DNA from: Peptococcaceae bacterium
GTDB lineage: Bacteria; Bacillota; Peptococcia; Peptococcales; Peptococcaceae
Length of the DNA stretch: 24,000 bases
Direction: 5' to 3'
Assembly (NCBI GenBank): GCA_017399005.1
Contig: JAFQEO010000039.1
Location: 376-24,375 of the forward strand
Shown here: positions 550 through 13,433 of the stretch, one piece after another
How the letters are laid out: each line of letters opens with the position of its first letter
How positions within the stretch are numbered: position 1 is the stretch's first letter
Made by a program: the position numbers and the translations under genes
Notes under the pieces: generated by a model
Database searches by the model: none
Seen by the model: only the letters and a program-made list of their open reading frames with translations
Told to the model about the DNA's origin: nothing

Positions 550-2037
550 CTACCGCTTCTTCTGCGGTTTAATCAGCAATGTACAGAACAGAGAAATCAC
601 CAGGAACACGGCCAGATACAGATAGTCGGTATTTACGGCCTGGATGGCGGCCAGGCGATATTCCATGGTGCCTTCCTGCGGGATACCGGTGTTGCCGGCT
701 GCCAGATAGTAACGGTTCAGGTTGAGGCTCAGCACTACGGTTAAGATGTTGGTGGATACCACCTGCACCACCTGTTTGCCCCAGTTATACAGCGAGGAGG
801 CATGGCCGGACAGTTCCGGCGGCACGGCGCTTAAGCCGTAGTTGGTCAGCGGCATCTGCAAGAGCGATAACCCGGCATAACGCATGGTAAAGCAGATTAA
901 CACAAATACCGCATTGCTGTCGATTTTTAAATTGCACAGCCCCAGATTGCCGACTAGCACAATCAGCACCCCGCCGGTAATCAGCGTGCGCACAAACCCT
1001 TTTGCATGAAGCCGGATGGCGATGGTATTTGCCACCAGCATGGAAAGTGCCGGAATCAGCAGAAACATCCCGGTTTCCGCCGGCGACCAGCCTCTGCCGG
1101 TCTGAAAATAAAACTGGCTCAGCATGGCGTTGATGCCCAGTGTCATCGCCAGAGTGCACTGCACCAGCATAGCCAGCGCAAATGGCTTAAATTTCAGCAC
1201 TCCAAAATTCAAAAGCGGATGGGACGTATGGAACTGCCGATACACAAAAATCAGCTCCAGTGCCAGCCCGGTTAACAGGCAGCCCCAGAACAGAGCCGAC
1301 CTCCAGCCCCAGGCATCGCCCTCGGTAAAGGCAATCATAATCATACCGGTACCGATGGATACCTGCAGAATACCGAAGAAATCAAATTTATCGGTGTTTT
1401 TACCCTCTTCTGCCGGAATGCTCTTATAGCCAATCCACAGCACCAGCAGCACAAAGGGAATATTAAACAGAAACAGGAAGTGCCAGCTGGAAAAAGTCAG
1501 CATAATCCCTGCCAGTGTAGGTCCGATGGTAACCCCCACCGACTGGAACATCATCGCGGTACCCAGATAAGGCTCCTGCTGTTTTTTCGGAATATAGCGG
1601 TACAGCATAGCCACAGTGCTTGGCACCACAACACCACCGGCAATCCCTTTTAAAAAGCGGAAAGCCACCAGCATATAAAAGCTGGTGGAACAGGCACAGC
1701 CCAGCGAGCTGAGCCCCATCACCGCAATGGCCGACAGAAACACCTTACGATAACTGTACCGTTCACACAGATACCCGGCCAGCGGCATCATCATACCCAG
1801 CGGCAGCATATAGCCCACCACTACCCACTGCACCGTATTGATATCCACATGGAAAATAGACATATAAGACGGCAGCGAAATATTCACCGTCGATGTATTC
1901 AGCATTGTAATCAGGTTGGTCAGCATTACCGCCACCAGAAACTTGCGGTTGCGGCTGGCCGATGCTTTATCCAGTTCTGCAGGTTCCCCCATAGTCGTCA
2001 TCTTCTTTCTAAAATCATTCAAACGAAAATCATTCAA
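550..2037 (-). CDS. MFS transporter, DHA2 (EmrB/QacA-like, 14-TMS) drug:H+ antiporter family
   Basis: The 495-aa ORF is hydrophobic throughout, and its ~14 predicted TM segments and length fit DHA2. It is adjacent to a MerR regulator. The start is uncertain: ATG 2037, or internal ATGs at 2001/1992 (MTTMGEP...), and none has a strong SD. A possible extended -10 promoter (TGcTATAAT) lies on the minus strand at 2071..2063. Confidence 0.85.
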   Translation of the reverse strand: MNDFRLNDFRKKMTTMGEPAELDKASASRNRKFLVAVMLTNLITMLNTSTVNISLPSYMSIFHVDINTVQWVVVGYMLPLGMMMPLAGYLCERYSYRKVFLSAIAVMGLSSLGCACSTSFYMLVAFRFLKGIAGGVVVPSTVAMLYRYIPKKQQEPYLGTAMMFQSVGVTIGPTLAGIMLTFSSWHFLFLFNIPFVLLVLWIGYKSIPAEEGKNTDKFDFFGILQVSIGTGMIMIAFTEGDAWGWRSALFWGCLLTGLALELIFVYRQFHTSHPLLNFGVLKFKPFALAMLVQCTLAMTLGINAMLSQFYFQTGRGWSPAETGMFLLIPALSMLVANTIAIRLHAKGFVRTLITGGVLIVLVGNLGLCNLKIDSNAVFVLICFTMRYAGLSLLQMPLTNYGLSAVPPELSGHASSLYNWGKQVVQVVSTNILTVVLSLNLNRYYLAAGNTGIPQEGTMEYRLAAIQAVNTDYLYLAVFLVISLFCTLLIKPQKKR

Positions 2038-2182: not shown

Positions 2183-2211
2183 TTTACATCTATTTCCAAT
2201 CGTGATATACT
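2183..2211 (+). promoter_or_regulatory. Sigma-70/SigA-type promoter of the helicase gene (TTTACA-17-TATACT)
   Basis: -35 TTTACA is at 2183-2188, followed by a 17-nt spacer and -10 TATACT at 2206-2211. It lies in an AT-rich region about 60 nt upstream of the ATG at 2274. Confidence 0.5.
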
Positions 2212-2273
2212 GCCTTTCAACAAAATTTACCAGAGATAACACCTTTACACACATCAGGGAAGGAGACCATTTT

Positions 2274-3866
2274 ATGACACAAGAACTTGTAATTCCCCAT
2301 GCTGCCGAACCCGAACTTCTGGACAATGCACCGGTACCCGTTGCAGAACCCATTGCCGAACCGGTTGCAGAACATCCGGCAAAACCCGTCCCGGCGGCCA
2401 GACCGTGGGACCGGGCAAAAGCACCGGAAACCGTGGAGGAAACCATCAACTGCTATGAGCCAAACGATGTAGGCAATGCCCGGCGCTTTCTGGATATACA
2501 CGGAAACACGGTACGATTCTGCGCTGCCGAAGACCAGTGGTATGCGTTTAACGGCATCCAGTGGAGTACTGCCACCACCGCCCATGTTGAGCGAATGGCC
2601 TTTCAGTCTCTCGAGGAATCCTACCAGAAAGAGGCACAGTATTTTAAAGAGCGGGACGATTTCGGCTATTTTAAAGACCTCCGCAAACAGACAGCAAAGC
2701 AGGGCATCGATGCCGGTAAAGCCAGAACCGTCAGCGACTGCGTAAAAGCCTCTGCCTTTTTAAATATCATCGAGCCGGAGGAGTTTAACAACGACCCTTA
2801 CTGGTTCCATGCAAAAAACGGTGCCCTTTATCTGAAACCGACCACGGTTATGGATAACGGAGAGGAAATTTTCCGTTATGAAGCAAAGCTAGGGAACAAT
2901 CCCAAACACTACTTTACCCGTACCGCCGGGGTATCCCTTCCGGGGCCGGAAGATTTGCACGATACGCCGCAGTGCCCCACCTGGGTTCAGTTTGTATACA
3001 CCTGTGCAGGGAAGGACCGAGCGGTATACAAATATCTGCAGAAAGCGGCCGGATACTCGGTGTTAACCGGTGATATCTCCGAGCAGAAGGTATTCTGCCT
3101 GCTGGGTGCCGGACGCAACGGCAAGTCGCTGTTTATCAACACACTGGCCGAGATTGCCGGTGACTACGCCTGCAAAATCGAATCGTCCATTCTGTGCCGC
3201 AACCGGTTTAACGAGCAGGACACCGACACCGCCAAAGAGCTGTTCCGCATGAAAGACAGCCGGTTTGTATATACCAGCGAATTCGGAAGCAGCAACACCT
3301 TGAACGAAGCCTTCATCAAAGCCATTACCGACGGCGGTAAAATCAGTGCACGGCAGCTTTACAGCTCTGCCATTGAATACACACCAACCTATAAGCTGTG
3401 GTTTTCCACCAACCATATGCCAAATCTGCAATCCATCGACGAAGGCATTCGCCGCCGCATTGTGGTAATTCCGTTCCGCAGCCAGATTCCGGAAAACCAG
3501 ATTGACCGTTCTCTGGCCGATAAACTGCGGGCCGAATACACTCAGATCCTGATCTGGCTGCTTCTGGGCTATAACGCCTATCTCTGTGAAGGGCTGGAGC
3601 CTCCAGAAGCCGTGCGCAGCGCCACCGCCAGCTACTTTGAGGAGCAGGACGTATTCCAGCGGTTTTTAAACGAATCCTATGTAATCGACCCAAACGGCAA
3701 AATCGCCGCCCGCACCCTCTATCAGCACTATCAGGGCTGGTGTGCGGAAAACGGCGAGAAAGCCGTGAGCAATAATAAGTTTGGAATGGAAATAACACGG
3801 CTTGGTGTAGAAAAAGGACGCGGAAAGCATGGAATTTTCTACCGCCTGAATGAAAAAACCTTATGA
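2274..3866 (+). CDS. Phage/plasmid 'primase' P4-family / D5-like SF3 helicase (replication initiator-helicase of a mobile element)
   Basis: ORF 2202..3866. The likely start is ATG 2274, preceded by GGAAGGAG (MTQELVIPH...). SF3 helicase motifs are present: Walker A LLGAGRNGKS, motif B FVYTSE and motif C LWFSTNHMP. An upstream 'NDVGNARRF' / D5_N-like region is typical of the P4-family C-terminal domain (COG3378-type) proteins. The N-terminal ~70 aa are Pro/Ala/Glu-rich, and I could not recognise a Toprim or AEP primase catalytic domain. Confidence 0.85.
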   Translation: MTQELVIPHAAEPELLDNAPVPVAEPIAEPVAEHPAKPVPAARPWDRAKAPETVEETINCYEPNDVGNARRFLDIHGNTVRFCAAEDQWYAFNGIQWSTATTAHVERMAFQSLEESYQKEAQYFKERDDFGYFKDLRKQTAKQGIDAGKARTVSDCVKASAFLNIIEPEEFNNDPYWFHAKNGALYLKPTTVMDNGEEIFRYEAKLGNNPKHYFTRTAGVSLPGPEDLHDTPQCPTWVQFVYTCAGKDRAVYKYLQKAAGYSVLTGDISEQKVFCLLGAGRNGKSLFINTLAEIAGDYACKIESSILCRNRFNEQDTDTAKELFRMKDSRFVYTSEFGSSNTLNEAFIKAITDGGKISARQLYSSAIEYTPTYKLWFSTNHMPNLQSIDEGIRRRIVVIPFRSQIPENQIDRSLADKLRAEYTQILIWLLLGYNAYLCEGLEPPEAVRSATASYFEEQDVFQRFLNESYVIDPNGKIAARTLYQHYQGWCAENGEKAVSNNKFGMEITRLGVEKGRGKHGIFYRLNEKTL

Positions 3867-3878
3867 TTATCCTGTTTG

Positions 3879-4041
3879 GGTGTAGTCGGGTGTATATCTG
3901 GTGCAGCTTTGGTGTAGGCACTTTTGTGTCAACCAATAGGCCGGTGTAGGAGTGTAGGACTTTTTAGAAAAAAATTAAAAATCGAAACAATATTATAAAA
4001 AACTTTCCAAAAAGTACTACATGTCCTACACCACCTACACC
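3879..4041. repeat. Iteron cluster flanking an AT-rich spacer; putative replication origin
   Basis: GGTGTAGG-type 8-mers occur at 3879-3886 (GGTGTAGT), 3889-3895 (GGTGTAT), 3900-3906 (GGTGCAG, degenerate), 3911-3918 (GGTGTAGG), 3943-3950 (GGTGTAGG) and 3951-3958 (AGTGTAGG). Inverted copies lie at 4025-4031 (CCTACAC) and 4034-4041 (CCTACACC). GGTGTAGGAGTGTAGGAC (3943-3960) and GTCCTACACCACCTACACC (4023-4041) form a near-perfect inverted repeat around 3961-4020, which has only 10 G/C in 60 nt. Confidence 0.55.
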
Positions 4042-4093
4042 CTGTATCCTTTTCAATCTTGACGCATAGATTCTAATATGGTAGTATATATTT

Positions 4094-4186
4094 AATAAAA
4101 GAGTTGTTGCGTGACGGCAACCCTGAGAATTATCTAAACGAAGATTACCCCGTCGACTTTTCCGAGGAGCAGACGGGGTAGTTTTT
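4094..4186 (+). ncRNA. Candidate small RNA, copy 1 (orphan antitoxin-like sRNA)
   Basis: The promoter has -35 TTGACG at 4059-4064, a 17-nt spacer containing TG, and -10 TAGTAT at 4082-4087. The transcript carries hairpin GTTGT/GCAAC (4103-4122) and the intrinsic terminator TACCCCGTC(4146-4154)...GACGGGGTA(4172-4180)+GTTTTT. There is no ORF or SD and no downstream plus-strand gene, so it is not a leader. The TSS is estimated. Confidence 0.5.
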
Positions 4187-4199
4187 CACCTGTAAAATA

Positions 4200-4228
4200 A
4201 GCCGGTACTGACTATCCAGATACCGGCT
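4200..4228 (-). terminator. Intrinsic terminator of the LRR lipoprotein gene (bidirectional hairpin)
   Basis: Stem AGCCGGTA (4200-4207) pairs with TACCGGCT (4221-4228). T-rich runs follow on both strands (TTTTCT on plus, TTATTTTAC on minus). Confidence 0.7.
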
Positions 4229-4244
4229 TTTCTCGTTTATTCAG

Positions 4245-5162
4245 TTATACGGTCAGAAAATCTACCAGTTTCTTCTCTGCTACATTCTCGATGTTAATAC
4301 CAGTTGCTCCATTTGGAACCTCAATGATGAATTTCAGAAGGTTTCCTTCAATGACTACGTTCTCCGGTATACCTTCCCACTCATCCCGGCTGATTTCCTC
4401 TACATCTGGCTGCTGTAATACAATCTGACGGGTAGCATAATCCAGACTCACAAATTTTAATTTATTCGAATAGCAATTCATAAATGCATCGTCGTACACT
4501 GACAGATGCCGTAAATTCGGTGTATTATCAATTTGCAACTCGGTAATCTGATTATTCGAACAGTCAACCGAAACCAGATTCGGCGCACTGCTGATATCCA
4601 GTTCTGTCAAACGGTTGAAACTAACATCTATACTCTGAATGTTCGGCAGCCCTTCAAGGTCTAACTCCGCCAGCTGACCGCCACTGCAATGCAGACCTTT
4701 CAAAGCTGGAAGATAATCATAGGAAATTTTTGTAAGTTCTTCATTGCCAGCACAGCTCAAATCCTCCAGATTCTTTGCGTTGCTTAAATCCAATTCTTTC
4801 AGGTTATTGTAAGGACAAGTGAGATATACAATACTTTCTGGAAGAACCAGAGTTTCAATATGGTTACTGTGAACATTCAAAAACGTCAGCCCTGTAAGCG
4901 CTGATACATCTAACGTTCCCGCAACAGGCTGTTCCCCGTAATAAAGAGCTATACTTTCTACTCTTCTAGGGTTATCCTTACTCCAGGAAGTAACAAAATC
5001 CCACGCTTTCACGTCATCCTTCGGTACATCCCAGCCGTGTTCATCAATCAGCTGATTAATGGCCGCAATATCGTTCTGGTCATATTCGGCCCCACAGCCA
5101 GTCAAACAGCAGACAAAACATAACAGCAATCCGATAATCAGCACATATTTTGGTGTTTTCAT
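4245..5162 (-). CDS. Leucine-rich-repeat (LRR) lipoprotein, surface-exposed, function unknown
   Basis: The 305-aa product has signal peptide MKTPKYVLIIGLLLCFVCCLTGC with lipobox LTGC. Repeated ~22-aa LRR units are present (LKELDLSNAKNLEDLSCAGNE, LAELDLEGLPNIQSIDVSFNR, LTELDISSAPNLVSVDCSNNQ, ITELQIDNTPNLRHLSV). AGGAGG lies 9 nt upstream. GC content is visibly lower than in the flanking genes. Confidence 0.8.
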   Translation of the reverse strand: MKTPKYVLIIGLLLCFVCCLTGCGAEYDQNDIAAINQLIDEHGWDVPKDDVKAWDFVTSWSKDNPRRVESIALYYGEQPVAGTLDVSALTGLTFLNVHSNHIETLVLPESIVYLTCPYNNLKELDLSNAKNLEDLSCAGNEELTKISYDYLPALKGLHCSGGQLAELDLEGLPNIQSIDVSFNRLTELDISSAPNLVSVDCSNNQITELQIDNTPNLRHLSVYDDAFMNCYSNKLKFVSLDYATRQIVLQQPDVEEISRDEWEGIPENVVIEGNLLKFIIEVPNGATGINIENVAEKKLVDFLTV

Positions 5163-5194
5163 AAGGTATCGCCTCCTGTCATTGTGTTAATTTT

Positions 5195-5223
5195 ATTATA
5201 ACAGAAACTCCTATCCGGCTCAA
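5195..5223 (-). promoter_or_regulatory. Promoter of the LRR lipoprotein gene (TTGAGC-17-TGtTATAAT)
   Basis: On the minus strand, -35 TTGAGC is at 5223..5218, followed by a 17-nt spacer and an extended -10 TGtTATAAT with TATAAT at 5200..5195. Confidence 0.55.
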
Positions 5224-5244
5224 TTTTTATTTTCAAATCACAAA

Positions 5245-5389
5245 TCTGTTATCCTCTTGACGCATAGATTCTAATGTGGTAGTATATACTTAATAAAAGA
5301 GTTGCTGCGTGACGGCAACCCTGATACTTTGTTTCTTGAGAATTACCCCGTCAACATTTCCTAGGTGCGGACGGGGTAGTTTTATGCCC
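5245..5389. repeat. Direct repeat copy 2, left part (sRNA promoter + sRNA)
   Basis: See copy 1. The central ~30 nt (5325-5343) diverge from copy 1, while the promoter, first hairpin and terminator arms are conserved. Confidence 0.8.
5292..5384 (+). ncRNA. Candidate antitoxin small RNA, copy 2, convergent with the 28-aa peptide gene
   Basis: The promoter has -35 TTGACG at 5257-5262, a 17-nt spacer with TG, and -10 TAGTAT at 5280-5285. It carries hairpin GTTGC/GCAAC (5301-5320) and terminator TACCCCGTC(5344-5352)...GACGGGGTA(5370-5378)+GTTTTA. It ends 23 nt from the stop codon of the convergent peptide ORF. Confidence 0.5.
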
Positions 5390-5406
5390 TTTTACAGGCG
5401 GTTCAA

Positions 5407-5493
5407 CTATTTTTCGCCATTAAAAAGGGCGATTACTGCTACGATTAGTAAGCCGAATGTAAATAAACTCGTTAAGGCTTCCCATGTTACCAT
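5407..5493 (-). CDS. Unannotated 28-aa hydrophobic peptide, candidate type I toxin (holin-like-toxin-type)
   Basis: Below the ORF-track size cutoff. Hand translation from ATG 5493..5491 to TAG 5409..5407 gives MVTWEALTSLFTFGLLIVAVIALFNGEK, a single TM helix with a short polar N-terminus and a charged C-terminus. A strong G-rich SD (AAAGGGGGTGGGAG) lies directly upstream, and a dedicated promoter lies ~70 nt upstream. From memory it resembles the ~25-35 aa 'putative holin-like toxin' peptides of Firmicutes. Confidence 0.55.
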   Translation of the reverse strand: MVTWEALTSLFTFGLLIVAVIALFNGEK

Positions 5494-5569
5494 AGCTCCC
5501 ACCCCCTTTAAGCGGGCTACCGTCCACTGCTATCCATTGTGAAAAACAATGTGCAACAACTCTGTCCAC

Positions 5570-5598
5570 ATTTTACCATGCGAACAGACATTCTGCAA
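5570..5598 (-). promoter_or_regulatory. Promoter of the 28-aa peptide mRNA (TTGCAG-17-TGgTAAAAT)
   Basis: On the minus strand, -35 TTGCAG is at 5598..5593, followed by a 17-nt spacer and an extended -10 TGg+TAAAAT with TAAAAT at 5575..5570. The predicted ~70-nt 5' UTR contains the CATTG/CAATG hairpin. A possible SD-sequestering pairing (UAGCCC...GGGAGCUA) is also present. Confidence 0.55.
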
Positions 5599-5625
5599 TA
5601 CGTTTTCCAAAATAAAATTAACATT

Positions 5626-5677
5626 CTGTAAAATAAGCCGGTATCACTCTCGATACCGGCTTTTATCATTTATTCGT
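5626..5677. repeat. Direct repeat copy 2, right part (shared terminator segment)
   Basis: CTGTAAAATAAGCCGGTA-N10-TACCGGCTTTTaTCaTTTATTC matches 4190-4243 of copy 1. In copy 2 it is separated from the sRNA by the ~235-bp peptide cassette. Confidence 0.75.
5636..5661 (-). terminator. Intrinsic terminator of the XRE-family gene (bidirectional hairpin)
   Basis: Stem AGCCGGTA (5636-5643) pairs with TACCGGCT (5654-5661). On the minus strand it is followed by TTATTTTAC, and it lies 9 nt after the stop codon at 5670. Confidence 0.7.
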
Positions 5678-6311
5678 CTTTCATAATATACTGTTTATCG
5701 ATTGCCAGATTCACCAGAACGGCTGCACACATATACACCACCAGCACCAGCACTTCAAACAGCAGGCTGGAGTATGGCCTTGGATAAAATGCTGCAGCGG
5801 CGCTCATGGCAAAGCGAACGGGGAAGTACAGCCCCAGCCACGCGGATATTTTATAAAACCGGCGGCGAAAGGCTTTTGTCTGCACGGTCTGTTTGCCGGT
5901 GTTTTTCTGATAGGCATATTCAAAACCGCCAATGGCTGCCACAAAGGGCAGAAAGCTTAAAAATGCAAAGACTACATTCTGCAGAATCACCACGCTCATA
6001 AACTGAATCAGCAGAACCATAACCTCTAATGTAATCAGATAAATGAGTATGCGGCCAATGTCGTTTTCATCGGCAGCCGGTACGGGCTCCTGCACTTGCG
6101 TTTTGTATTCATCCACATCATCGTTTAAGAGATAATCGGCACTCACGGCAAATACTCTGCTTAACTGCCGGATGTTGTTTGCATCAGGCAGAGCGGAGCC
6201 CGACTCCCAGCGCGAAATTGCCTGCCGGGATACGTTCAGTTTTTCCGCAAGCTGCTCCTGGCTCATCCCCTCTTTTTTGCGAAGCATTAAAATTTTGTCA
6301 CTCAGTTTCAT
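5670..6311 (-). CDS. XRE-family HTH transcriptional regulator with C-terminal multi-pass membrane domain
   Basis: ORF 5670..6347. The likely start is ATG 6311 (MKLSDKILMLRKKEGMSQEQLAEKLNVSRQAISRWESGSALPDANNIRQLSRVFAVSADYLL), preceded by AGGGGTGA. This is a canonical HTH_3/XRE motif followed by about 4 hydrophobic TM segments. Confidence 0.8.
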   Translation of the reverse strand: MKLSDKILMLRKKEGMSQEQLAEKLNVSRQAISRWESGSALPDANNIRQLSRVFAVSADYLLNDDVDEYKTQVQEPVPAADENDIGRILIYLITLEVMVLLIQFMSVVILQNVVFAFLSFLPFVAAIGGFEYAYQKNTGKQTVQTKAFRRRFYKISAWLGLYFPVRFAMSAAAAFYPRPYSSLLFEVLVLVVYMCAAVLVNLAIDKQYIMKDE

Positions 6312-6419
6312 AAAATCACCCCTGCTGTCGGTTTTGTTTGCTCTCATTATAGCAGACAGGCGGTTTTTAAGCTATCACTTACGGGTTGCAATTCCGCAAC
6401 AAGAGGTTACATCGGGTAG

Positions 6420-7712
6420 TTACACGCTAAACCATTCCTCTTTGTATCGCTTATCCAGATAGTTTTTCAGCATCCAGACGATGGCAAAGGCCAGAACAAA
6501 CAATGCCAGATAGACTTTCCAGATTAGCATATAGCTCCCGGTGGCATCGAATACCAACCCGGATAAGAATGGCCCGAAGGATGCACCAATGGTATAGGCA
6601 ATGGTGGTAAGGCTTAAAATATCGGCATAATCACGCTGGCCGAAAAATCCGCTGACAATCTGCGGCATTCCTACGCTGGTGAAAATGCTGCCGCAGCTGT
6701 AGCAAAGCGCAAACAACAATGCCAGAAACGGTGCATCGGCCAGAAGCAGACAAACCATAGCCAGTATAAAGGTTCCAGCCATAAACAGTATCCCTGCACG
6801 GGTACCTCTGGCATCACACACCATACCCAGCACGATTTTGGCAACTACAATACAAACAGCCTCAAACGAGAACACAAAGGCAATAAACCCTGCCGTATGG
6901 CCAATGTCTGTCAGATAAGCCGCAATATGCATGTGCACCCCGCCGATTACCAGCGACCAGATGCAGATAGCAGCCAGAAACAGCCAGAAATAGCTTTTTG
7001 TACGAATATCACCGAGTTTGGCCCCGGGTGCCGGTGTTTCTGTTCTGTTATCTTCTATACTATCCTCAATATCCTCGATATTCTTCTGTTTTGTTTTTCG
7101 TCCCCGATATGGTTCCGCACCGCGTTCTGCAGGATCGCGATACGCAAACATCCAGGTAAGCGGCAGACAGAAGATTGCAATCAAAGCCCCCATTGCCACA
7201 TAACTGAACTGCCAGCCGAACCGGGCTAAAAGTGCCGTCAGCACCGGTGACAGAATCGCCATCCCGAACCCGCTTCCGGTAAAGGCAATCCCCATTGCCA
7301 GCCCCTTACGGTCGATAAACCAGTTATTGATTAACAGCGACCCTACCATCTGCGTACATCCGGCTGTGCCGATACCTACAATAGCTGCAATAATATAAAA
7401 GTGCCACGGTGCACGGGCCAGTGAATAGGATGCAAAGCCCCCGGCCACTAACAGGACACATACGCCCACCACATACCGCGCTGGATACTTTTTCAGCATT
7501 TTTGTAACTACAGGCAGAGCAAAGGCCACTGCCACACCCGAAATAGTAAACAGGAGTGAAAATGCGCTGCGTTCCATGCCAAGCCCCTCGGTTACCGGCA
7601 CCAGAAACATACTGTGCAGATTCTTAATAACGGCAAAGTTAAAAAACATCAATATAAAACAGTAAAACACAATTCCAAAGCAAAACAAACTCTGCTGTTT
7701 CTGTTGTTTCAT
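6420..7712 (-). CDS. MFS transporter (12-TMS; MCT/oxalate-formate-antiporter-like), paralogue 1
   Basis: The 430-aa hydrophobic product has loop motif NNWFIDRKGLAMGIAFTGSGFG, typical of the OFA/MCT-like MFS subfamily. GGGGAGGAAA SD is present. It lies 26 nt downstream of its paralogue. Confidence 0.85.
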   Translation of the reverse strand: MKQQKQQSLFCFGIVFYCFILMFFNFAVIKNLHSMFLVPVTEGLGMERSAFSLLFTISGVAVAFALPVVTKMLKKYPARYVVGVCVLLVAGGFASYSLARAPWHFYIIAAIVGIGTAGCTQMVGSLLINNWFIDRKGLAMGIAFTGSGFGMAILSPVLTALLARFGWQFSYVAMGALIAIFCLPLTWMFAYRDPAERGAEPYRGRKTKQKNIEDIEDSIEDNRTETPAPGAKLGDIRTKSYFWLFLAAICIWSLVIGGVHMHIAAYLTDIGHTAGFIAFVFSFEAVCIVVAKIVLGMVCDARGTRAGILFMAGTFILAMVCLLLADAPFLALLFALCYSCGSIFTSVGMPQIVSGFFGQRDYADILSLTTIAYTIGASFGPFLSGLVFDATGSYMLIWKVYLALFVLAFAIVWMLKNYLDKRYKEEWFSV

Positions 7713-7738
7713 GTTGTTTCCTCCCCGGAATCCTGCAT

Positions 7739-9007
7739 TTATTCTTGCATTTCAGAGCAGAACCACAGACTGTTATACCGCTTGTCCAGATGACTTTTCA
7801 CAAGCCACAGCAGAACTGCCGATACGCTAAACAGCACCAGATACACCATCCAGATGATACGGTAACTGCCCAGGGCATCAAAGGCCATCCCGGAAACAAA
7901 CGGCCCGAAGGAAGCGCCCAGAATATACGCCATGTTCACAATTCCCAGAATATCGGCATAACTTTTCTGCCCGAAGAAACCGCCAATTAACGATGGTATC
8001 CCAACGCTGGAAAACGAAATCCCGCAACCGTAGGAAACCGCAAACAGTACTGCCAGAACCGGCTGTTCTGCCATCAGAAGAAGTACCAGCCCCAGTGCAA
8101 AGGTGCCGGCCATAAAAAGCAGCCCTGCTTTGCTGCCTTTGGCATCAAAAATCATACCGGCTGCAATTTTCCCGATTATTAGGCTCACAGCCTCTACCGA
8201 ATACACCATTGCCACAAACTGTGCCGTATGCCCCACATCGGTCAAATAAGCCGGAAAATGAGAATGTATGCCGCCAATAGCAAAAGACCATCCCGCCATA
8301 CCAATCAGAAACATCCAGAAGAACCCTTTGCCGCGAATTGCCTTCAGTTCCGGCCCCTCCGGTTTGCTTATTTCAGTGGTGTTTTCTGTTTCTTTGCCAG
8401 AGCCGTCCCTGTAAGGCCGGGCGTTTTTCTCCGCCGGGCTGACAGCAGCCAGAAGCAGCGTTAGTGGAATACATACCGCCAGCATAACAATCCCGCAGAG
8501 CAGATAAGCCGTGCGCCACCCGTAAACGGTAATCAGATGGGTAACCACCGGTGAAAGCAGAGCAGCCCCAAAGCCGCTGCCGGTGAGGCCAATCCCCAGC
8601 GCCAGCCCTTTGCGGTCTTCAAACCAGTTATTGATTAACAGCGATGCCACCATCAGGGTGCATCCAGAGTTGCCGGCGCCCATTACAACGGCAATGGCAA
8701 AAAACTGCCAGAGTTCTGTTGCCTGTGAGAACATCGCAAAGCCCCCGCCAGACATCAGGATAGATACCGAAACAACAATCCGTGCAGGATATTTCTGCAG
8801 CAGTTTTGTCACCACCGGCAGCGAAGCCACCCCGGAAAGGCCGCTTATGGTAAACATCAGCGAAAAGGCGCTGCGCTCCATGCCCAGCCCTTCCGTCACC
8901 GGAACCAGAAACAGACTGTGCAGACTTCCCACAATGGTCTGCATCAGAAACATCAATATAAAGCTATAACCAACGATACTGAAACACCGCAATGTATTCT
9001 TTGTCAT
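7739..9007 (-). CDS. MFS transporter (12-TMS; MCT/oxalate-formate-antiporter-like), paralogue 2
   Basis: ORF 7739..9061. The start is placed at ATG 9007 (MTKNTLRCFSIVGYSF...), preceded by AAGGAG at 8-nt spacing. It aligns with the downstream paralogue along its whole length (e.g. LHSLFLVPVTEGLGMERSAFSLMFTISG vs LHSMFLVPVTEGLGMERSAFSLLFTISG). Confidence 0.85.
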   Translation of the reverse strand: MTKNTLRCFSIVGYSFILMFLMQTIVGSLHSLFLVPVTEGLGMERSAFSLMFTISGLSGVASLPVVTKLLQKYPARIVVSVSILMSGGGFAMFSQATELWQFFAIAVVMGAGNSGCTLMVASLLINNWFEDRKGLALGIGLTGSGFGAALLSPVVTHLITVYGWRTAYLLCGIVMLAVCIPLTLLLAAVSPAEKNARPYRDGSGKETENTTEISKPEGPELKAIRGKGFFWMFLIGMAGWSFAIGGIHSHFPAYLTDVGHTAQFVAMVYSVEAVSLIIGKIAAGMIFDAKGSKAGLLFMAGTFALGLVLLLMAEQPVLAVLFAVSYGCGISFSSVGIPSLIGGFFGQKSYADILGIVNMAYILGASFGPFVSGMAFDALGSYRIIWMVYLVLFSVSAVLLWLVKSHLDKRYNSLWFCSEMQE

Positions 9008-9070
9008 TCTAAAATCTCCTTGTAAACCGTTTCTCATTTTTATCATTTTCATAATCTTCATTTATTATTA

Positions 9071-13312: not shown

Positions 13313-13433
13313 TACAGATTATCCGGCAGGCGTCGCCGCTCCTGCATCTCTTTTGACCACTAGGGTGTGTGGTTGCAACGAAATTTACCACCTCAGATAA
13401 TCTCCTTACAATTATATACTAATTATATTCTGC

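Follow-up and report, generated by a model that had tools for sequence, protein, structure and literature searches.

Results and Discussion

Analysis of a 24,000-nt stretch of contig JAFQEO010000039.1, from the Peptococcaceae bacterium assembly GCA_017399005.1 (hereafter the window), indicates that a pair of convergent small genes within positions 5100–5800 is, in all likelihood, a type I toxin-antitoxin (TA) cassette of the TxpA/BsrG/BsrE (Hol_Tox) kind, in an uncultured member of the gut Clostridia. The cassette is assigned to this type because it has the same design and because its toxin falls into the same Pfam family. In silico, it consists of a minus-strand gene for a 28-residue membrane peptide and of a separate, predicted plus-strand gene for an antisense small RNA (sRNA) complementary to the toxin mRNA. 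The 3'-overlapping type I architecture proposed in a first-pass annotation of the stretch, with txpA/ratA and bsrG/SR4 as models, holds at this level: the genes are convergent, the Shine-Dalgarno (SD) sequence is predicted to be sequestered and the setting is that of a mobile element. Re-reading of the region on both strands, together with the list of open reading frames (ORFs), gave the following elements.

5598..5570, minus strand: toxin promoter, with -35 TTGCAG (5598..5593), a 17-nt spacer and extended -10 TGgTAAAAT (5578..5570)
5563..5290, minus strand: predicted toxin mRNA of ~274 nt, from A5563 to a U-rich tract 3' of the long-range helix (predicted ends)
5563..5553, minus strand: 5' strand of the long-range helix, AGAGUUGUUGC, pairing with 5308..5298 in 23/23 sequences; like helix P1 of bsrG
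5519..5524, minus strand: strand of a second long-range helix, GACGGU, pairing with 5316..5311 (GCCGUC); 100% paired, two positions varying one-sidedly
5509..5496, minus strand: very strong SD, AAAGGGGGTGGGAG (also AAAGGGGGUGGGAG), predicted to be sequestered
5493..5407, minus strand: toxin ORF of 28 aa, MVTWEALTSLFTFGLLIVAVIALFNGEK, with one transmembrane helix and a charged tail
5386..5399, minus strand: small 4-bp GC hairpin, GCCC/GGGC, between the stop codon and the sRNA terminator; paired in 96.5% of cells
5308..5298, minus strand: 3' strand of the long-range helix, GCAGCAACUCU; on the plus strand, the 5' end of the sRNA
5257..5285, plus strand: sRNA promoter found by the promoter scan, with TTGACG (5257-5262), a 17-nt spacer and extended -10 TGgTAGTAT (5277-5285)
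5292..5383, plus strand: predicted antitoxin sRNA of ~92 nt, with a 5' hairpin (5301-5319), a terminator (5344-5352/5370-5378) and a U-tract (5380-5383)

Conservation of the cassette

A unit of ~330–350 nt recurs at ~73–80% identity in 23 other distinct sequences and in differing genomic contexts; since the whole unit is conserved in them, its features lie far beyond chance. Loci were gathered by two independent routes, exact identity of the peptide and a DNA pattern for the sRNA alone, and a BLAST search of the module against all 50 loci resolved 24 distinct modules. Every locus retrieved through the peptide has the sRNA and its promoter, and the peptide is present at every real locus retrieved through the sRNA. 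All 24 modules contain the peptide ORF together with the sRNA and its promoter; the toxin promoter occurs in all except the one at locus L032, and both promoters retain their hexamers, the 17-nt spacing and the TG extension.

The sRNA pattern returned 22 matches in metagenomes, four of them real (L018, L026, L032 and L035) and the others GC-rich chance matches; viral contigs gave one real match (L013, IMG/VR) and one chance match (L012), and species-representative genomes contained two carriers only, both uncultured Clostridia-class metagenome-assembled genomes (MAGs). A viral scan with a pattern built from the toxin 5' untranslated region (UTR) and ORF gave no match, and tblastn with the peptide found only a non-significant Aerococcus match (E = 7) among plasmids and none among phages.

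The predicted toxin gene and its peptide

The minus-strand ORF of 28 residues, with a single transmembrane helix and a charged tail, had been pointed out in the first-pass annotation together with a strong SD, an extended -10 promoter and a structured 5' UTR of ~70 nt, and each of these was read at the positions listed above; with the start of the mRNA predicted at A5563, the 5' UTR is 70 nt long. The promoter form TTGnnG-17-TGnTAnAAT is conserved in 22/24 modules, being shifted by 1 nt in one and absent from another whose 5' part has been replaced. The latter is L032 (15-354), in which both the toxin promoter and the long-range helix's 5' strand are missing and which keeps the leader from ATGGATAGC onwards, the ORF and the sRNA.

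Comparison of the coding sequences shows that the peptide is under strong purifying selection. The frame is intact in the 23 aligned modules, the only indels being whole codons in the C-terminal tail; variable columns number 11, 4 and 25 of 29 at codon positions 1, 2 and 3, respectively, and the pairwise ratio of nonsynonymous to synonymous substitution rates (dN/dS) is ~0.07–0.08. The question of whether the frame or only the nucleotides are conserved is answered in favour of the frame.

Hol_Tox (TxpA/BsrE-like) toxins are peptides of ~30–60 residues that have M-x-T-[YFW]-[EQ]-[AS]-L as their N-terminal motif, contain one transmembrane helix and end in polar or charged residues. The layout of the window peptide, MVTWEAL-TSLFTFGLLIVAVIALF-NGEK, fits the N-terminal motif, the single helix and the polar or charged end. 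Its score with the Pfam Hol_Tox model (PF16935, gathering cut-off 23.3 bits) is 22.1 bits (E = 1.4e-4), the alignment covering profile positions 1–23 of 34. Homologues that are 65–80% identical to it (core e.g. MVTWEALTCMFTFGLLLVAVIALFIGNNK) reach 28.1 bits, over the cut-off, and a TxpA sequence reaches 31.3 bits. The suspected likeness to the 'holin-like toxin' peptides of Firmicutes is in this way borne out by the profile search that had been suggested for it. A homologue search, with E-values that are approximate because the query was a tandem duplicate of the 28-aa peptide, yielded ten clusters of peptides 50–79% identical, 6/10 of which carry a precomputed PF16935 match; homologous peptides had been called too long, gene callers having extended them upstream through the conserved leader. 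On these scores the subfamily of the peptide is placed in Hol_Tox, the window peptide alone being borderline.

ComI was also considered, as it is the best NCBIfam match of the window peptide (NF052249), and orthology with it was rejected: the score of 20.8 bits (range 18.3–22 bits) is far under the equivalog cut-off of 55 bits. Matches to the holin family PHROG 3488 are not significant (E = 0.014–0.027 in two homologues, none for the window peptide).

Predicted structure of the toxin mRNA

The predicted toxin mRNA folds with -101 kcal/mol (z = -5.9), and in the RNAalifold consensus of its 23 aligned homologues (alignment A3) 98% of cells are paired. Columns 3–13 (AGAGYUGYUGC) pair with columns 297–307 (GCARCRRCUCU) over 11 bp in 100% of cells; column pair 7/303 is C-G in 14 sequences and U-A in 9, and three other positions vary one-sidedly via G-U. 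These wobbles are tolerated in the sense of the toxin mRNA only: on the opposite strand the G-U pairs become A-C mismatches, and therefore the constraint acts on the toxin-sense RNA. From the covariation of this 5'–3' helix it follows that the toxin mRNA would span the entire sRNA gene, as had been supposed when read-through of the peptide mRNA across that gene was proposed. The 11-mer at the predicted 5' end of the mRNA (AGAGTTGTTGC, 5563..5553) is indeed found again, in the same sense, near the 5' end of the sRNA in both of its copies, exactly at 4100–4110 (copy 1, described below) and at 10/11 positions at 5298–5308 (copy 2, the one in the cassette). As a control, 0/500 shuffles reached the observed covariation score and slid partners fell to 35–55% paired; this control is a modest one that favours the structure, because the structure was derived from the same sequences.

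The second long-range helix (GACGGU with RCYGUC) extends the 11-bp pairing across a 5' hairpin. Further inside, the SD and the AUG pair with the distal half of the ORF, AGGGGGUG pairing with the I-A-L-F codons (columns 64–71 with 161–168), and the SD and the AUG are unpaired with mean probabilities of 0.27 and 0.001, respectively. At the 3' side, the terminator scan detected at 5319..5304 the weaker minus-strand hairpin that had been placed near 5290, a weak hairpin followed by TCTTTTATT.

The two inverted 11-mers (5563-5553 and 5298-5308) could also be read as terminal inverted repeats that serve a recombinase, the whole unit then being a miniature mobile DNA element (MITE-like), and such a role would explain their co-variation. 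Inverted repeats do flank a cassette of ~265 bp that is found in many contexts and in tandem arrays. We nevertheless regard this explanation as hardly credible, since conservation runs ~35 nt past both repeats, to both -35 boxes, and since the repeats are imperfect as DNA and always pair as toxin-sense RNA, with one position U-G in 17, C-G in 4 and U-A in 2. Moreover, the junctions are seen at the promoters and not at the 11-mers, and no target-site duplication or association with a transposase was seen.

The predicted antisense RNA and its second copy

The convergent plus-strand unit, described earlier as having a near-consensus promoter, two hairpins and a GC-rich terminator with a U-tract, is present and conserved with compensatory changes. 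TTGACG is invariant wherever the sequence extends that far, and TGnTA(G/C)(G/T)AT occurs in 24/24 modules. The terminator has a 9-bp GC core followed by UUUU, and the end of the U-tract lies 23 nt from the stop codon of the peptide. The sRNA folds with -35.1 kcal/mol (z = -4.8), 0/200 shuffles folding as well, and the consensus of 21 copies, including both toxin-less ones (alignment A4), retains the 5' hairpin and a terminator of 14–15 bp with compensatory pairs at columns 11/27, 57/88 and 58/87. The sRNA is fully complementary to the 3' UTR of the toxin mRNA, over about its last 90 nt. The RNA co-folding that had been recommended gives duplex energies with the toxin 3' UTR of -182.6 kcal/mol for this cis copy and -127.5 kcal/mol for the toxin-less copy of the window, vs -46.8 +/- 4.2 kcal/mol for shuffles.

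One may ask whether a separate sRNA exists at all, the hairpins being no more than structures of the peptide mRNA, in its 3' UTR and terminator, and the promoter match on the plus strand being incidental. The mRNA needs 3' UTR elements for its own long-range helix, which could explain part of the conservation, and the sRNA is a predicted transcript. In our view this is very improbable, for TTGACG-17-TGnTAnnAT stands at a fixed distance in 24/24 modules, beyond the end of the helix, and the U-tract lies 3' of the strong stem on the plus strand only, in agreement with the earlier remark that on the minus strand the sRNA terminator has no U-tract. The G-U pairs of the sRNA 5' hairpin likewise suit the plus-strand sense, and the promoter, the two hairpins and the U-tract persist in two copies that have no toxin (window 4057-4186; L026 582-712).

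Coding potential on the plus strand was rejected. The 77-aa ORF covering the unit, already held to be spurious, is conserved in neither frame nor length, its stop-free length and frame varying among modules and the indels of the sRNA region not being multiples of three; ORFs of 20 and 25 aa within the sRNA are not conserved. Rfam searches gave no match overlapping 5290-5386 or 4092-4188, either at gathering thresholds or at E up to 10, and weak matches close to the sRNA were dismissed as hairpin look-alikes.

The second sRNA copy to which the first-pass annotation alluded is real (~4057-4185, 85% identity). Together with its terminator and that of the cassette border, it adds the following elements.

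4057..4186, plus strand: toxin-less second (orphan) copy of the sRNA, with promoter 4059-4087 and RNA ~4094-4186; 85% identical to copy 2
4199..4229, no strand assigned: terminator hairpin AAGCCGGTA...TACCGGCTT, 3' of the orphan copy and paralogous to 5635-5662
5635..5662, no strand assigned: two-way terminator hairpin between a helix-turn-helix (HTH) gene (5670-6347, minus strand) and the toxin promoter; far border of the cassette

The orphan copy has the same fold as copy 2 (z = -4.2), and the promoter scan detects its promoter as well (4059-4087); copy 2 differs from it by a 240-nt segment with the peptide gene and its promoter. Relatives with the same primase and HTH flanks (L036 and L011) have a single module, and by comparison with them the window has gained a block, made of the orphan sRNA, a terminator and a leucine-rich repeat (LRR) lipoprotein gene, that is situated between the primase element's end and the module. 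In a close relative, L026 (582-1136), a further toxin-less sRNA copy is convergent with a membrane-protein ORF of 132–139 aa (717-1136, minus strand), the 3' end of which overlaps a remnant of the toxin stop region; here the sRNA may have been re-used against another gene, or the arrangement may be a recombination scar.

Comparison with characterised type I systems

The closest parallel in design is found in the systems of Bacillus subtilis with a 3' overlap, such as txpA/RatA, bsrG/SR4, bsrE/SR5 and yonT/SR6. In the probed bsrG mRNA (296 nt), nt 1–35 are paired with nt 232–262 to form helix P1 and the SD is held in a short GC helix; the antitoxin SR4 has complementarity to SL3, P1's 3' half and also the terminator, and its binding frees the 5' strand and triggers cleavage by RNase III (PMC3834814). 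More generally, all studied B. subtilis systems pair at the 3' ends, sequester or over-strengthen the ribosome binding site, lie in prophage-like elements and encode toxins of 29–59 aa (PMC6562991).

The window cassette resembles bsrG/SR4 (SPbeta) in its small single-pass membrane toxin, its structured mRNA of ~270–300 nt with a 5'–3' helix and a sequestered SD, its convergent antitoxin covering the 3' strand of the long helix and the mRNA 3' end, and its mobile-element or prophage setting. It differs in that SR4 is ~180 nt long with a non-complementary 5' part, whereas the window sRNA, of ~92 nt, is entirely complementary; the RNAs have no sequence or Rfam similarity, the hosts are Bacillus and an uncultured gut Clostridia bacterium, respectively, and a tightening of SD sequestration by the sRNA is not predicted for the window. 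With txpA/RatA (skin element) it shares Hol_Tox, an N-terminal M-x-T-[YW]-E-[AS]-L, a convergent 3' overlap and a very long, near-perfect SD, and the RNase III-dependent decay known there is the mechanism to be expected here (PMC6562991); the sizes differ, TxpA having 59 aa and RatA 222 nt as opposed to 28 aa and ~92 nt. The toxins of bsrE/SR5 and bsrH/as-bsrH, as well as ComI (pBS32), are of the same size class (29–30 aa). According to a 2024 preprint, ComI belongs to InterPro's BsrE-like family of type I toxins and kills competent cells selectively; unlike the window peptide, ComI is not mentioned there with an antisense partner (10.1101/2024.02.02.578676). TxpA-like genes have been reported in Clostridiales, and members of the TxpA family bear 'holin-like toxin' annotations (Fozo et al. 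2010, PMC2887945).

A long-range 5'–3' pairing of the toxin mRNA is also a point of likeness with hok/sok and aapA1/IsoA1, from which the window differs in that its antisense RNA covers the 3' end itself. In those two systems the pairing keeps the full-length toxin mRNA closed, activation needs 3' trimming, and the antisense RNA targets the 5' region.

Proposed mechanism

On the type I TA reading, the minus-strand mRNA of ~274 nt (5563 to ~5290), which encodes the single-pass membrane peptide, is predicted to be translationally quiet on its own, its SD and AUG being base-paired and its 5' end clamped to the 3' UTR by the 11 + 6 bp of the long-range helices. The ~92-nt sRNA, transcribed from a near-consensus extended -10 promoter, would pair with the last ~90 nt, among them the 3' strand of the clamp. 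On the model of RatA/txpA and SR4/bsrG, this would create a long duplex in the 3' region, to be cut by RNase III, after which 3' exonucleases would degrade the toxin mRNA; re-folding of the freed 5' region may be a further effect of the pairing. With the sRNA lost or lowered, the peptide would be made and the membrane permeabilised or depolarised, and such a release would stabilise the mobile element or prophage that bears the cassette. The orphan copy (4057-4186), which has lost its toxin, could act in trans as an extra antitoxin.

Several observations weigh against this reading. In all its members the cassette is known from sequence, so that transcripts, toxicity and neutralisation are predicted; transcription, transcript ends, toxicity, RNase III dependence and biological role are what we infer. 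The window peptide lies 1.2 bits under the Hol_Tox gathering score (22.1 vs 23.3). RatA has an entry in Rfam, and no similarity of the sRNA to RatA, to SR4 or SR5, or to other families in Rfam could be detected, so that the case for homology covers the toxin and not the RNA partner. The hairpin ahead of the toxin-sense U-rich tract is imperfect in most relatives and the 3' end of the mRNA is a predicted one. In the thermodynamic model, SD accessibility is 0.27 in the free and 0.35 in the sRNA-bound mRNA, a small change, and a translational effect of the sRNA is therefore supported neither way. Finally, some copies lie between holin and endolysin genes, which leaves room for a role related to lysis rather than to stabilisation.

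Genomic contexts and a possible role in lysis

Modules occur in at least five unrelated contexts, distributed over the loci as follows.

L011, L026, L036-38: primase/HTH, the same neighbourhood as in the window
L001-5: acetyltransferase/Rce1
L006, L048-49: ParA/LytTR
L007-8, L045: ABC/SASA
L044: three tandem copies
L009, L010: arrays alternating with a second peptide type
L039-43: prophage lysis cassette (holin, module, Amidase_3 endolysin)
L013: IMG/VR contig

At L039-L043 (e.g. L041 208-2174) the cassette fills the gap between the Phage_r1t_holin and the Amidase_3 endolysin genes, on the same strand as both, and the antisense sRNA promoter would therefore fire against read-through of the late operon. 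The same position suggests another reading, in which the peptide, rather than being an addiction toxin, assists phage lysis or regulates the membrane (as a holin or antiholin partner, or as a ComI-like factor that kills cells in a particular state only), the copy in the window is a phage leftover, and the antisense RNA times or gates expression of the peptide or read-through into the endolysin gene. Besides the gene order, the holin matches in PHROG, weak as they are, speak for it, as do a weak match to phrog_9488, a phage family of unknown function, and the ranking of ComI, reported to kill competent cells selectively, as best NCBIfam match. We consider it unlikely all the same. Most copies lie outside lysis cassettes, and the cassette comes with two promoters of its own and behaves like an insertion; at ~21 bits the ComI match is far under 55, and the holin matches are not significant; and characterised type I modules also sit in prophages (PMC6562991).

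A further reading, to which we likewise attach a low probability, sees in the cassette a weapon-and-shield pair used in conflicts between phages, mobile elements and hosts. In prophages, the copies located between holin and endolysin would use the peptide to adjust or reinforce lysis or abortive infection. Orphan sRNAs, such as the one at 4057-4186 beside the primase element, would be retained as 'anti-addiction' immunity in trans, silencing incoming homologous toxin mRNAs through the 3' strand of the clamp.

Some loci depart from the common layout. At L009 7460-7520 and L044 2316-2621 the SD and the toxin's ATG are separated by an inserted GC hairpin of ~22 nt, ACCCCACCAGAAAGGCGTGGGG, which may act as an additional anti-SD element or keep translation silent. 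In the arrays (L010 1-771; L009 7100-8000, an uncultured Clostridia MAG) the modules alternate with a second peptide, MTYELYGAIIATLTLVVAVIALVRKK, whose Hol_Tox score is only 13.5 bits; neighbouring units have their toxin and sRNA promoters back to back, and the second type has a different sRNA-like sequence.

Knowledge of type I TA systems is patchy except in Bacillus, Staphylococcus, Enterococcus, C. difficile and enterobacteria, and annotation misses their peptides and RNAs alike. New here are a host range that is clostridial, an sRNA that is unrelated and very compact, the arrays, the position in lysis cassettes and the orphan antitoxin copy. Supported by comparison, the locus establishes a toxin-plus-sRNA cassette, compact and portable, of uncultured gut Clostridia and their prophages, and its concrete sRNA sequence and structure could serve as the seed of an RNA family. 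A further indication is that the bsrG type of mRNA design, a 5'–3' helix with its 3' strand as the antitoxin target, extends well beyond Bacillus. From a practical point of view, the locus flags an unannotated gene for a predicted membrane-active peptide and would explain why cloning of the region may be hard without the antisense promoter.

Other features of the window

The cassette lies close to a D5_N/DUF5906 primase-helicase gene (2202-3866). Just downstream of that gene, at 3910-4040, iteron-like GGTGTAGG repeats surround an AT-rich core, direct at 3910, 3943 and 3952 and inverted at 4023-4040, in a flank common to L026 and L011; the arrangement resembles an origin of replication or the terminus of an integrated element. 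On the other side, the minus-strand gene at 5670-6347 encodes an HTH_3 protein with a C-terminal membrane domain. It is a constant neighbour in the window, L026 and L036-38, and its terminator (5635-5662) abuts the toxin promoter. Two adjacent paralogous major facilitator superfamily (MFS) genes follow on the minus strand (6420-9061), sharing a 281-nt repeat that is 70% identical (7237-7517 and 8541-8821), and a third MFS gene is located at 550-2037. A skipping-rope RNA (Rfam RF02924) was identified at 13318-13401 on the minus strand, with 59.2 bits vs a gathering threshold of 36.7 (E = 4.7e-12).

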